Source: Acidobacteriota bacterium
GTDB taxonomy: Bacteria > Acidobacteriota > UBA6911
NCBI GenBank assembly: GCA_963664705.1
Contig: OY761556.1
Span: forward strand, 1,504,001-1,568,000
Length of the DNA: 64,000 nucleotides
Direction: 5' to 3'
The position numbers and the translations under genes were made by a program. The notes under the pieces were generated by a model. It did not search any database. It worked only from the letters and a program-made list of their open reading frames with translations, and was not told the origin of the DNA. Below are positions 34,337-44,827 of the stretch, piece by piece. Positions within the stretch are counted from its first letter, which is position 1, and every line of letters begins with the position of its first letter.

Positions 34337-34359
34337 TGAGCGGGAGTAATTCAGCGGTA
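34337..34359 (+). repeat. Left attachment site: duplicate of the tRNA-Gly 5' end
   Basis: TGAGCGGGAGTAATTCAGCGGTA identical to 44750-44772. Confidence 0.92.
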
Positions 34360-34487
34360 TTTGTCCACCCCAGCAAGCAAAAATAATCAAAAACAATAAA
34401 ACATAGATAAATCCTGCTGTTTACGCGGGTGCGGGGATGCCTCTCTTTTTTGTTCTCTGCTTAAAATTGCGCTTTTTCATTCTTTTT

Positions 34488-34598
34488 TGTTGCGGTATTG
34501 GTGCGACGGAGTAATAGTAATTTCGGCTGGGTGATAATTAATTCAAATTTTACACCCTAATTTCTAGCAGTCGCACCAGTCGCACCAATACCGCAACA
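34488..34598. repeat. Perfect 20-bp inverted repeat (candidate integrase arm sites)
   Basis: TGTTGCGGTATTGGTGCGAC (34488-34507) and GTCGCACCAATACCGCAACA (34579-34598); a 17/19 copy at 44683-44701. Confidence 0.75.
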
Positions 34599-34602
34599 GA
34601 CT

Positions 34603-35700
34603 ATGAAAATTGCCCTACGATCCAGACCGACTACGATACGTGGCAAACGAAGCCTGTACCTTGATTTTTACGACAACGGCAGGCGCTGGTATGAAAGCCT
34701 GGGCTTATACACGATCGGCGATCGTGAGGCGGATAAACAGACAAAACGGCTTGCAGAAACTATCCTCAGCCAGCGGCGGCTTGATGCTGCATCGACTAAC
34801 AACGCGCTGCCAGCGCCATCACGATCAAAAGCCGATTTTGTGGAATTCTGCCGGAAGATCGGAGAGGAAAAGCCTTCGGAGAATACCCAGCTTGTTTGGA
34901 AAAACACCATTTCCCATTTAAAAGCCTTCGCGGGGGAACATGGAATTACGCTCGGGGCCATCAATGAAGCTTTTCTGGAAAGATTCCGCGACTACCTTTT
35001 GACGAAGGTGAGCCCGAATACAGCGCTCACCTATTTTTCCAGAATAAAGACAGCCTGCAGGAAAGCGGCGAATGAGCAAATCATCCCGCGTTATGTCGGA
35101 AGCGGTATCACGATCAGAAAACAGCAGACTAACCGCGCATACTTGACACTTGAGGAACTGCAAAAGCTCGAACGGACTCCAAGCGCAAACCAGGCGGTAA
35201 GGGATGGCTTCCTGTTCTCATGTTTTGCAGGATTGCGATATAGCGACGTAAAAGCGCTGACCTGGGATCAGGTAAGGCGAGAGGGAAATCATTCGTTCTT
35301 GTGGTTCTCACAAGAGAAAACAGGGGATTTTCAATCACTCCCGCTATCTCACCAGGCGCTTGAAATTCTGAACGCGCAGCAAAAGGCAAAACCTTCGCCG
35401 AAGATCCGGCAGGAAATTGGGAAAGACATTATTTTCAAGCTTCCTGCTCAGCAGACTGTGGACAAGGCTTTGAAGCGCTGGGCGAAGCGGGCCGGGATAG
35501 AAAAAACCGTTAGTTTTCATGTGGGCCGTCATACCTTCGCAACACTGGCGCTCACCTATGGTGCGGATCTTTACGTTGTTTCAAAGCTGCTCGGGCATCG
35601 GCGGATAGAGACAACGGAAATATATGCAAAAGTCGTGGATAAATCCAAGCGGGATGCAGTTACACTTCTGCCAAAGCTCAAACGAGCGCCGAAAAAATAA
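34603..35700 (+). CDS. Tyrosine integrase with N-terminal arm-binding region
   Basis: SLYLDFY, GLRYSD, EKTG, FHVGRHTFAT, LLGH, TEIYAK give the R-K-H-R-H-Y catalytic set. Confidence 0.95.
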   Translation: MKIALRSRPTTIRGKRSLYLDFYDNGRRWYESLGLYTIGDREADKQTKRLAETILSQRRLDAASTNNALPAPSRSKADFVEFCRKIGEEKPSENTQLVWKNTISHLKAFAGEHGITLGAINEAFLERFRDYLLTKVSPNTALTYFSRIKTACRKAANEQIIPRYVGSGITIRKQQTNRAYLTLEELQKLERTPSANQAVRDGFLFSCFAGLRYSDVKALTWDQVRREGNHSFLWFSQEKTGDFQSLPLSHQALEILNAQQKAKPSPKIRQEIGKDIIFKLPAQQTVDKALKRWAKRAGIEKTVSFHVGRHTFATLALTYGADLYVVSKLLGHRRIETTEIYAKVVDKSKRDAVTLLPKLKRAPKK

Positions 35701-35929
35701 AGCCGATAGTCTTTAGATCCTTCACAGATATATCCAAAAAATATCAAATATCCTATAAATGTGTCTGATTAAACAGAACACCTAAAAATATTTGTGTAGC
35801 GCTGACAGCCTTTATTTATAAGGGTTTAGTGGCGATATAGGGGGGTGTCTTACAAGATAGGACATAGTTTTTTTATTTGCCCATCTTTAATCTACTACTC
35901 GGCTGTTGTTGTTATTAGGAGATTCCAAA

Positions 35930-36217
35930 ATGACCAATCGTGAAATTGCCGAAAAATTAGAGAGCATAGAATCTAAGCTTTCCGATCTGACCAAGGCCTC
36001 AGAAAAACCCTTTGATTTGGCGGCGGCTGCGGACTATCTGAAGATGAGCAGAAGCCACTTATATCAATTGACCTGCCGAGGAATAATAGCGCACTACAAG
36101 CCAGGCGGAAAGCGAATCTACTTTGAAAAATGTGATTTGGATGAATACGTGCGGCGGAACCGTATCAGATCGCAATTCGAATTGGAATCTGAAGCTGCCA
36201 ACCGGATATCGGCTTAA
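35930..36217 (+). CDS. Excisionase-type helix-turn-helix protein
   Basis: AAADYLKMSRSHLYQLT...IAHYKPGGKRIYFEKCDLDEY. Confidence 0.88.
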   Translation: MTNREIAEKLESIESKLSDLTKASEKPFDLAAAADYLKMSRSHLYQLTCRGIIAHYKPGGKRIYFEKCDLDEYVRRNRIRSQFELESEAANRISA

Positions 36218-36229
36218 GAAGGCTTCCCA

Positions 36230-42865: not shown

Positions 42866-43141
42866 ATGATTCCGGCAACTACTCTGTTTTGGGTGATAGT
42901 GGCCGCGCTCTATGCGATTATCGGGGCATTCTGGGCAGGCGCTGCAAAGGTACACGGGGCAATACGCTGTATAGCGATCTTGAGCGGAGAAGTGAAAGAG
43001 GAATGGCCAGCGGCCCGCAATTATTACCATTGGATTAGGCCCTTGGGATTTTTCTTTCTGTGGCCGCTGTTTTGTTGGATCGCGGATTATAGAGTAGAAA
43101 AGGAACGGCGCGCCGAAGATAAGCGGCGCGCCGGGTCATAG
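42866..43141 (+). CDS. Small two-TM membrane protein
   Basis: Two hydrophobic segments and a charged tail; begins 5 bp after the TMP stop. Confidence 0.6.
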   Translation: MIPATTLFWVIVAALYAIIGAFWAGAAKVHGAIRCIAILSGEVKEEWPAARNYYHWIRPLGFFFLWPLFCWIADYRVEKERRAEDKRRAGS

Positions 43142-43186
43142 TTATTTGATTGTGCGGCCTTGGCTGCGGGCCAGGGCTGCATATTC

Positions 43187-43348
43187 CTACACTTCTTTTT
43201 CTTCGAAGCCGCACAATCGCGCGGCGCATTCCACCACGGTTTCTATATCCTTTTCCTGAAGCGCGGCCTTCATGCGGGCCAGGATGGCTTCGCGGGCCTT
43301 TCCCATTTCAATCAGTACCTCCACCAAGGGGCGTCTATCTTCGCTCAT
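43187..43348 (-). CDS. Small hypothetical protein (53 aa; not in the ORF track)
   Basis: MSEDRRPLVEVLIEMGKAREAILARMKAALQEKDIETVVECAARLCGFEEKEV; ATG abuts the upstream TAA. Confidence 0.55.
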   Translation of the reverse strand: MSEDRRPLVEVLIEMGKAREAILARMKAALQEKDIETVVECAARLCGFEEKEV

Positions 43349-43672
43349 TTAGCATCCTGTCCTGACGAAGTGCGTTATTCGGCTCACAGCAATCAATGCA
43401 TTTAATCCCTTTTCGGCCTTTGTGGACGCGGCAGGATTGAAGGCGCTCTGGAATTGTGACGGCCACAAGTGCAAGAACGATAGGGCATCCCGCTGGGCTG
43501 CGGAGATTCTAAGCAGCGCGCGCGATCGCGCGTAAGCATCTACCTTAGTTGGGCTCATTCCGGCAGCTTGTACCGTGAGGCCCGTAATATCAGTTTCGAA
43601 GTCTTCGACTCTGAAGGCTGCAGGATTGCGAAGAATCGCATTCTGAACTTTTAAAAGTAATCGGGTATTCAT
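43349..43672 (-). CDS. Hypothetical phage-type protein
   Basis: GGAGG RBS; MNTRLLLKVQNAILRNP...LWPSQF...RITHFVRTG. Confidence 0.65.
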   Translation of the reverse strand: MNTRLLLKVQNAILRNPAAFRVEDFETDITGLTVQAAGMSPTKVDAYARSRALLRISAAQRDALSFLHLWPSQFQSAFNPAASTKAEKGLNALIAVSRITHFVRTGC

Positions 43673-43950
43673 TTTTGGTATTCCTCCGGATGTACCGAAG
43701 GCACGCGGGTATATAATGCGGACGGCGCGCTGCGTGCCCAAATCACGCGGTTCGCTAGGCCCTGGTGGGTGTTAGTAGCACTCCCAGGGCCGCCAATCCC
43801 TACCATCTTGTTTGCTTGGGCCTGATTTTGTCAAGCTGGATACGTCCGATTTGTGCCCGCCATCACATTTTTCGTGCATAGCGGGAACAAGATGTTCCGA
43901 TATAATAAGCGGCATTCCTTAGCCCAATACGACCGTAAAGGAGGAAGCTT

Positions 43951-44562
43951 ATGTTCTGCCAGAAATGTGGGAAAGAGATTCCTGACCAATCGACCTTTTG
44001 CAATCATTGCGGCAATAAGAGCACGGATAATGCGGAAAAGAGCCAGAAGAAGAGCAGAAGCAGCGTTCTCCCCTGGGTACTTGTTCTTATTCTGGCAACT
44101 GCAGTGGTTGCGCTATGGCTCACAAGCGGAACAGTAAAGAAATCAGAGCCGGAAACGGCTGCTATGTCACAGGCAACTAAAGTGAGGGAACAAGTTTTTA
44201 TTCCGAAAGAAGATTCCCTTATTTCGGGAACCATAAACATTCCAGCTGGGAAGATACATGAAGCCCGAATCTTGATATCGGAAAAGATGCGCAATCCCAG
44301 GATAGTGGGCCATTTCAGCGCTTCCGGTGGATCGGGCAACGATGTTCAAGTGGTTCTCACGGATGAAGACAATTTCGTTAATTGGAAGAACGGGCACCAG
44401 GGCCGGGCTTTGTATAATACCGATAAGATTACCCAGGACTCAATTAACGCCAGAATTCCAGGGCCTGGAATTTACTATTTAGCCTTTAGTAATTCCTTTT
44501 CGACATTCACTGAAAAGCAGGTTACTGCAGACATCAAGCTGAAGTACGAAATTCTTCAATAG
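43951..44562 (+). CDS. Zinc-ribbon, single-TM protein with a beta-rich external domain
   Basis: MFCQKCG...FCNHCG, TM helix, GHFSASGGSGND, GIYYLAFSNSFS; AAGGAGG RBS. Confidence 0.8.
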   Translation: MFCQKCGKEIPDQSTFCNHCGNKSTDNAEKSQKKSRSSVLPWVLVLILATAVVALWLTSGTVKKSEPETAAMSQATKVREQVFIPKEDSLISGTINIPAGKIHEARILISEKMRNPRIVGHFSASGGSGNDVQVVLTDEDNFVNWKNGHQGRALYNTDKITQDSINARIPGPGIYYLAFSNSFSTFTEKQVTADIKLKYEILQ

Positions 44563-44752
44563 AGAGATTAAACGGGTAAGCTCTTGAAAAAAAATCCGTT
44601 CCAGGATAAATTGTTGCCCGTGATGAGCACGAAAGAGCAACGGGCAATTCGGAATGGCAACCCCATACACCAGAATTTGACTTGTTGCGAAATTGGTGCG
44701 AATAGGAAATTGCAAAAACAGTAAGTCTATCAATTTCAATAAGATAGATTGA

Positions 44753-44827
44753 GCGGGAGTAATTCAGCGGTAGAATGCCAGCTTCCCAAGCTGGACGTCG
44801 CCGGTTCGATCCCGGTCTCCCGCTCCA
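44753..44827 (+). tRNA. tRNA-Gly(CCC)
   Basis: Acceptor GCGGGAG/CTCCCGC, D arm ATTC-AGCGGTA-GAAT, anticodon arm CCAGC-TTCCCAA-GCTGG, T arm GCCGG-TTCGATC-CCGGT, encoded CCA. Confidence 0.97.

Follow-up and report, generated by a model that had tools for sequence, protein, structure and literature searches.

Is a 10.4-kb element that carries a terminase small subunit and a whole tape measure gene a phage satellite in its own right or what deletion has left of a prophage, and what would such an element gain from a tape measure? The question is raised by a locus in an Acidobacteriota bacterium (GenBank assembly GCA_963664705.1), in which a window of 64,000 nucleotides (contig OY761556.1, positions 1,504,001 to 1,568,000 of the forward strand) holds the element at 34337-44772; coordinates below are those of the window unless another contig is named. 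Our comparisons make it very probable that the element is a satellite. On the reading that we regard as probable overall, it resembles the islands termed PICIs (phage-inducible chromosomal islands) and is cos-packaged by lambda-like phages; its core would redirect packaging and head assembly, and its captured tape measure protein (TMP) would be built into helper tails.

The element is bounded by a perfect 23-bp direct repeat (34337-34359 and 44750-44772, spaced 10,413 bp apart). The left copy, located by repeat search, is an att core that duplicates the 5' end of tRNA-Gly(CCC); the right core and the intact tRNA-Gly(CCC) (44753-44827) together occupy 44750-44827, and the element, lying on the upstream side of this tRNA, reconstitutes the tRNA's 5' end. 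Both att cores and all core genes read on the forward strand. The genes begin with a tyrosine integrase of 365 aa (34603-35700; PF00589, PF13102 and PF17293; phrog_1, E 2.5e-50), a predicted HTH_17 excisionase or AlpA-like regulator (35906-36217; PF12728, E 1.9e-11; TIGR01764), which no AlpA-named profile matched in a scan that excluded SatelliteFinder's own profiles, and a replication initiator-like (primosomal) protein, Rep (36230-37087; phrog_3992, E 1.3e-8). Rep is of the phage primosomal or initiator type and not a primase-helicase, and its position matches that of the PICI primase-replicase module. Three hypothetical genes follow, namely hypA (37178-38047, with a likely start at 37229), hypB (38058-38486, 142 aa) and hypC (38487-38678, 63 aa), then a Nu1-like terminase small subunit, TerS, of 183 aa (39202-39753; phrog_57, E 1.9e-19; 28% identical to lambda Nu1 over 97 aa), a 64-aa zinc-finger ORF of phage type (39781-39975; phrog_1581, E 4.7e-9) and an intact TMP of 953 aa (39999-42860; several TMP PHROGs, the best named at E 7.9e-25). 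Repeat and family scans thereby confirm what the sequence-only reading of this DNA had listed, from the perfect repeats and the int-xis-rep genes to the Nu1-like terS and the full tape measure gene. A 60-aa ORF after hypC (38675-38857) was rejected and is probably not a gene, being frameshifted in the sister element introduced below, with a dN/dS of 0.80.

That reading had also held that no capsid, portal, terL or tail-tube remnant is recognizable, and this is borne out. A tblastn comparison of the element with 10,109 ORFs, taken from 88 loci of phages and prophages, placed 124 of its 141 matches inside the TMP gene, and the other 17 fell on terS, the zinc-finger ORF, the hypA repeats, the integrase or short off-frame stretches, none of which has a head or tail identity. 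The closest full phage, L128, had 14 proteins tested, of which only the TMP and the protease C-terminus match. Remnants of capsid, portal, terL, tail-tube or tail-chaperone genes were thus found nowhere in the element. Two hidden Markov models (HMMs) for tail chaperones (TAC and TAC-T) gave nothing, the best E-values being 0.67 and 0.034 (the latter antisense within terS), with positive controls that scored down to 1e-65 and a profile set that covered the helper-type family and no TACs of the PLE type; the zinc-finger ORF, which has a homologue (41%) in a resident prophage, was likewise rejected as a tail chaperone, with no match to the TAC HMM. Lysis and repressor genes are absent by PHROG, Pfam and NCBIfam scans, which are the sole basis for this absence. 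Gram-negative PICIs are cos-packaged, lack a master repressor and use an activator in its place (PMC6092414), which would account for the missing repressor.

The evidence that carries the argument is a compact sister. Retrieved with the hypA alignment, the element on contig L115 occupies the same tRNA-Gly site and has HTH, hypA, hypB, hypC and terS in the same order, at identities of 82%, 65%, 72%, 69% and 71%, respectively. It is truncated at its left end and complete from terS to the tRNA, and after terS it carries three unrelated cargo genes, then the tRNA, and no TMP. At the rep position it has a nonhomologous DnaD-like gene (phrog_2514). All five conserved ORFs have dN/dS values between 0.18 and 0.37 relative to L115 (HTH 0.18, HypA 0.37, HypB 0.19, HypC 0.30, TerS 0.34), which places the conserved core under purifying selection. 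HypB and HypC are thus listed as conserved satellite core genes; for HypB, which has two homologues at 72%, there was no family match, an atlas search gave no usable match, and comparison with a 138-aa gene of genome G485 showed no homology.

Because this compact sister at the same site shares the core yet has no TMP, the element is, by these sequence comparisons, not a prophage remnant. The alternative, that a prophage of 40 kb lost terL, its head genes and most of its tail genes by deletion, can point to a terS, a cos-like site and a TMP that are all closely related to those of full lambda-like phages (G021:C56 and L128), arranged in the same relative order. We nevertheless consider it very improbable and largely refuted already by L115: there are compact sisters that share this core, hypA-C precede terS and are under purifying selection, pseudogene fragments were not found, and the TMP is unlike the core and terS side in composition, so that the two did not come from one phage genome. 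The sequence-only reading had envisaged that close relatives might turn out to be full prophages, with no compact homologues; compact relatives were found.

Further compact elements were recovered beyond L115. G021:C24 (L026:5931-16006) is 10,013 bp long, lies at the 5' end of a tRNA-Arg and carries HTH, rep and hypA-like genes, its own phrog_1005 capsid and terS, with no portal or terL. The satellite TerS of G021 is 52% identical to that of our element, and that of the G021 prophage is 48% identical. In another family of the phylum, G485:C8 (11,005 bp) has int, xis, rep, a two-repeat scaffold protein, a cos-like site and terS. Finally, G129:C10 (L173:5320-15901; 10,558 bp) shares the tRNA-Gly att core and has an integrase (53%), xis (52%), primase, helicase, terS and terL; portal, capsid and TMP were not detected in it. 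Other small islands of the int-HTH-primase/helicase kind were also seen in relatives (L032:2654-8985 in G002:C12, L174, L175 and L177), three of them with terS and with no portal detected.

The hypA family itself is rare, occurring in 2 of 137 genomes of the class and 2 of 401 of the phylum, with its own genome counted. The class survey of 137 genomes gave 13 loci with a near full-length phrog_57 match, six of them beside terL and portal and seven without a portal by the references used. A TMP is present in two of these seven, our element and G034:C8; in three of the seven, a TMP was looked for by tblastn, with a single HMM and by scanning selected ORFs against PHROGs, and one contig is only 7.9 kb. 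G034:C8 (L138:7705-19006) is an 11,257-bp tRNA-Lys island with terS and no head genes, in which the integrase and the TMP are both frameshifted, through decay or assembly error; its TMP is about 40% identical to that of a different prophage lineage, making it an independent case of terS with TMP. Among 80 IMG/VR loci kept from 546, many of them fragments, none pairs a relative of the TMP with the element's integrase, HTH, rep or hypA-C. Viral-contig scans with the single queries hypA, TMP, terS and P0039 and with the hypA alignment gave no match.

Redirection of helper packaging, as proposed in the sequence-only reading, is supported by a helper-type cos-like site and by the compact homologues. 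The 70-mer upstream of terS in the full prophage of G021 finds its best match across the 6.9-Mb genome of our host directly upstream of the element's terS (39084-39153, forward strand), at 46 of 70 positions, against 39 for the next match and a background mean of 17.5 (sd 3.6). The core of this cos-like site is kept in L115, the G021 satellite and G485. Its position agrees with that of lambda cos, to which it is identical at only 30 of 70 positions, so that the name cos is a prediction. Upstream of it, the tandem motif GGTACACCC occurs twice within 38968-39054 (forward strand; 0.11 copies expected), and at the same position there are two copies in G485, one in L115 and none in the G021 phage or satellite. 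Taken together, the satellite TerS and the cos-like site support a predicted redirection of packaging. As separate observations, G021:C24 and its co-resident prophage G021:C56 have 22 bp of the cos-like site identical and are likely a satellite-helper pair, and the noncoding stretch 38680-39060 is 86% identical to L115 over 153 bp, with a hairpin and T-run at about 38890-38930 and no Rfam match.

Head assembly is the second point on which the earlier proposal gains support, from the scaffold-derived repeats of HypA. This protein consists of an N-terminal alpha/beta domain and three helix-hairpin repeats of about 34 aa, and its AlphaFold2 model (pLDDT 84.6, pTM 0.41) shows the alpha/beta domain, a linker and the three hairpins. 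A profile search of 1.8 billion proteins gave 24 matches, among them the phrog_53 protease/scaffold proteins P0047 (E 6.5e-10) and P0055 (E 5.8e-5), both matched at their C-termini. Similarly, an HMM of the repeat matches the last residues of the proteases of L128 (E 2.2e-13) and of the G021 phage (E 1.3e-9) and nothing else in the element's own genome. A fold search gave a best Z of 6.0, on a 47-residue hairpin only, and HypA was found to have no solved structure related by sequence. Protease/scaffold C-termini of this type bind coat protein in lambda-type heads. On account of the homology between its three repeats and the motif at the C-terminus of protease/scaffold proteins of the helper type, we predict that HypA is a scaffold mimic that interferes with head assembly. 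The order of the element, with the scaffold-like gene before terS, is the reverse of the helper-type order of terS, terL, portal, protease/scaffold and capsid.

The tape measure gene has a different history. The closest relative of the TMP, as the best of 32 matches, is that of L128, at 58% identity over the full length (953 versus 968 aa). L128 is a full lambda-like phage with genes for terL, portal, protease/scaffold, capsid and tube, two genes that resemble chaperones, and the TMP; its scaffold and capsid are of the helper type considered above. The two TMPs have both termini and an internal duplication of about 82 aa in common, and a quick tree places them as sisters (SH-aLRT 100), with residues 101-300 nearer to another TMP. 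Their similarity begins at the ribosome-binding region, and the frame is intact for 953 codons. Core codon usage would lead one to expect about 10.7 occurrences of TCGA in the gene, which has none (a result reached in 0 of 1000 simulations) and lies within the longest TCGA-free stretch of the 6.9-Mb genome (39355-43203, 3,848 bp). L128 has 0.43 TCGA per kb and the host 5.3; six other TMPs of the family and the TMP of the resident prophage have 3-10. Distances in synonymous codon use alone (0.080-0.113) do not clearly separate the donors. Since the TMP keeps this L128-like avoidance of TCGA, its capture was likely recent, the donor being a helper-type phage similar to L128. It also lies outside the conserved satellite architecture, as it is missing in L115 and three other relatives and has the composition of a different phage lineage.

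Does the captured gene do anything for the satellite? The sequence-only reading had assigned it to the redirection of tail length, which is unsupported, given the 953 aa here against 968 aa in the closest phage and the fact that no chaperone is encoded; relative to relatives of 864-897 aa, the TMP would be longer. We instead favor a TMP that is built into helper tails, and several observations count against this or against the wider reading. The absence of a TMP from all four relatives examined (L115, G021:C24, G485:C8 and G129:C10) means that it may be a passenger. A third carrier of hypA and hypB lies on a 110,065-bp contig, and none of the 32 TMP matches came from a contig of that length. 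The dN/dS of the TMP relative to L128 is 0.19, near saturation, and is not assignable to time spent in the satellite. The element encodes no tail chaperone, whereas in the PICI-like elements (PLEs) of Vibrio tmp is in every case accompanied by tac (PMC12987554). Satellite TerS sequences group together at a support of 89/98, which falls short of the starred level, and the branches are long. The resident lambda-like prophage (G000:C1, about 5,132,000-5,171,200; L021-L023), which lies at tRNA-Leu(TAA) and has terS, terL, portal, a split protease/capsid and a TMP of about 1,150 aa, is unlikely to be the helper: its cos-like match is 26 of 70, its TMP is 26% identical over 175 aa, its capsid is of another type and it has no scaffold repeat. 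Among the sequences compared, neither the actual donor of the TMP nor the helper was identified. A phmmer search with the G021 capsid against the element's own genome in six frames gave no match. As a side observation on the resident prophage, its tRNA-Leu(TAA) has six further partial copies over a span of about 105 kb, which hints at islands arrayed in tandem.

Part of this evidence could be read to mean that the satellite is real and that its TMP, captured recently into the variable slot behind terS, is a passenger that has no role and has not yet been lost. Besides the absence from relatives, its foreign and unameliorated composition, the lack of chaperones and the unrelated cargo in the same slot of L115 fit such a passenger, as does the frameshifted state of the TMP and integrase in G034:C8, the only other island found with terS and TMP. 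We regard this as unlikely, though it deserves serious attention, on several grounds. The capture took precisely one complete tail gene and left behind its invariant neighbors (TAC, TAC-T and the downstream structural gene), the gene makes up 27% of an element whose family is kept at 10.0-11.0 kb, and its frame is intact. An unrelated TMP lineage follows terS in the G034 island, from the same host family, and satellite TMPs are functional in PLE11 (PMC12987554). A different possibility is that the TMP is purely defensive, a decoy that soaks up helper chaperones or yields noninfectious tails and so protects the host population and not satellite particles. A lone TMP would compete for helper TACs, interference with tail assembly is a common satellite defense (PMC11364771; Rta in PMC12987554), and PICIs are known to keep accessory genes in the slot that follows terS (PMC10085698). 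However, a full-length, two-ended TMP exceeds what a decoy needs, tail poisoning would cost the satellite its own transfer, and PADLOC gave no match for the element genes scanned, the TMP itself not being among them; a purely defensive role thus appears distinctly improbable.

Under the reading that we prefer, in which the TMP enters helper tails, the life cycle could run as follows. Helper infection would switch on the HTH regulator, Int and Xis would excise a circle via the 23-bp core, and Rep would amplify it. As the shared site suggests, the satellite TerS would then bind its own cos-like site and recruit the helper's TerL and portal. By homology, HypA would compete with the helper scaffold for coat protein, as CpmB does, likely favoring heads of satellite size. 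In the least certain step, which we would call about evenly balanced, the TMP, which reads in the same direction as terS and is likely co-transcribed with it, would use helper chaperones and replace the helper TMP in some tails. Such chimeric tails would be of about equal length, and the gain would lie in the identity of the TMP and not in length: possibly a DNA-injection channel, escape from TMP-directed exclusion or the spoiling of helper tails. The quotient of 41,787 and 10,413 is 4.01, which would fit packaging of a tetramer in full heads; this is not used as evidence, since it would presuppose a complete L128. A bolder version strikes us as doubtful. Here the element would belong to a satellite family peculiar to acidobacteria that remodels lambda-like heads by means of a multivalent scaffold taken out of the helper protease/scaffold and that swaps single virion genes through one modular chassis (the capsid in one member, TerL in a neighbor at the same site, the TMP here). 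The lone, chaperone-less TMP, only just gained, would be a minimal kit for hijacking tails and give satellite particles an injection channel unlike the helper's, possibly paired with the adjacent small membrane protein as an exclusion factor against the helper TMP.

Four accessory ORFs span 42866-44562. The first, of 91 aa (42866-43141, forward strand), has one N-terminal transmembrane helix predicted from hydropathy; its atlas matches are all under 0.9, and the phage collection held no match to it. A role as an exclusion factor similar to gp15 of HK97 was set aside for this ORF, the analogy being one of position and hydropathy alone (PMC3594210). Two small ORFs of 53 and 130 aa on the reverse strand (43187-43741) have no significant family, and the fourth (43951-44562, forward strand) encodes a membrane protein with a zinc ribbon, a transmembrane segment and a GOLD domain (PF13240, PF01105). 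An Rfam scan of the element region returned the tRNA alone above the gathering score, and a promoter and terminator scan of the element gave nothing above shuffles.

The same att core recurs in other genomes. About 280 bp around the right att core and tRNA are 84% identical in L115, and the sequence of the left core also bounds the 10,558-bp element of G129 and precedes homologous integrases in G007 and G022. In the same genus, G006 and G015 have no element at this place, the distance from the upstream flank to the tRNA being about 100-180 bp. A perfect 20-bp inverted repeat (34488-34598), with a related copy at 44682-44701 that is kept in L115, likely represents arm-type sites of the integrase. 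The element's integrase is 71% identical to those of G007 (L002, G007:C492) and G022 (L028, G022:C254), which lie behind the tRNA-Gly 5' core, and 53% identical to that of G129; a different gene follows the integrase in G007, and this integrase family therefore serves other elements too. Separately, the 3' end of the same tRNA-Gly is duplicated at 46823-46865 and 48846-48917, bounding two islands of about 2 kb (44783-48917), whose cargo comprises a RelE/Gp49-like gene paired with an HTH gene, alongside a pRiA4 ORF3 gene, and a protein made of RCC1 repeats. These 3'-end duplications and the 5'-end element together indicate that the tRNA-Gly is used at both ends. Single contigs from public runs, probably from the source sample, cover 32500-44788 with no differences, and pieces of the TMP in a second sample and study also show none. 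The contigs of five runs contained no attP or attB joints, a result that is uninformative either way because contigs drop rare variants.

Two sisters that share an att site, of which one has a TMP and the other none, together with a dated-looking capture, offer a clean case for why satellites acquire tape measures, which the PLE paper leaves open (PMC12987554), and the scaffold-repeat family is a candidate head-remodeling factor for lambda-type capsids; an uncultured host and a helper that was not identified limit testability. A full-text search, lacking most subscription journals, found no literature on PICI-like phage satellites in Acidobacteria, and on TMP-bearing satellites it found only the PLE and EPIP work, whose supplements may list more. 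The sequence-only reading was right that PLEs are satellites with tail components, and incomplete in naming them alone: some capsid-forming PICIs (cf-PICIs) and EPIPs encode TMPs as well. The combination, which it did not recognize for this lineage, likewise has closer precedents than it suggested, as EPIPs also have terS and, in some groups, scaffold. The novelty of the present case lies in its host group, in the scaffold-repeat protein, in a TMP that comes without chaperones and in the pair of sisters with and without it.

How, then, does the element compare with known systems? A deleted lambda-like prophage should retain remnants of terL, head genes and the tail operon in phage gene order; in the element none of these was found, and a scaffold-like gene precedes terS. 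Gram-negative PICIs of the EcCICFT073 type are the closest in design, sharing a size of about 10 kb, a tRNA-linked integrase, a predicted HTH regulator without a master repressor, a replication gene, cargo after terS and, by prediction, a gene for head morphogenesis ahead of a TerS-like one and packaging of the cos type by lambda-like helpers (PMC6092414, PMC6739421, PMC10085698). The element differs from them in its primosomal or initiator type of rep, in a head protein that is a free-standing scaffold-repeat protein and not a capsid homologue, and in its acidobacterial host. It has the integrase and small terminase that SatelliteFinder looks for in PICIs, and in the position of the capsid-morphogenesis gene, which is optional in Type B, it has the scaffold-derived HypA and no capsid homologue. 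The same PICI model forbids tail genes (PMC10085698), and the TMP therefore places the element outside it, whereas L115 would fall within. Experimentally, PICIs are defined by induction, excision, packaging and transfer that depend on a helper (PMC6092414). We thus suggest that the element works like a PICI without filing it as a strict member. Unlike cf-PICIs, it has no capsid, portal, protease, TerL or head-tail genes; some PICI-type islands do carry a putative tmp (Extended Data Fig. 10 legend, PMC12987554).

For head remodeling, the nearest parallel is CpmB of SaPI1, with which a satellite sets up competition against the helper scaffold for capsid protein (PMC5644958), as HypA is predicted to do. 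HypA differs from CpmB, to which no scan showed homology, in being homologous to the C-terminus of the helper's own lambda C/Nu3-type scaffold and in having three tandem copies and an N-terminal domain. For the tail, the model is PLE11 of Vibrio cholerae, a capsid-less satellite with its own TMP. The TMP and TAC that PLEs encode go into chimeric tails, and tmp is also found in other Vibrio satellites and cf-PICIs (PMC12987554). In PLEs, tmp is conserved with tac (in PLE11 also with bhuB), the helper is a lytic myophage, and the satellite TMP falls 95 aa short of the helper's, with an identity of about 20% (PMC12987554), whereas the TMP here stands alone, is non-core and is 58% identical to a helper-type TMP of similar length. 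In gene content, the element also resembles the EPIPs of Mycolicibacterium aichiense, which are 11 kb long and have terS, TMP and, in some groups, scaffold, with no tail tube or holin (PMC12822802); the shared set of terS, TMP and scaffold at about 11 kb is an analogy at the level of gene content. EPIPs differ in having a serine integrase in place of the tyrosine integrase found here, a head-tail adaptor and stopper, longer tails that have been seen, and a TMP in 13 of 13 isolates (PMC12822802). The element thus probably brings a satellite trick that was described not long ago to a new bacterial group and does not constitute a new kind of element.

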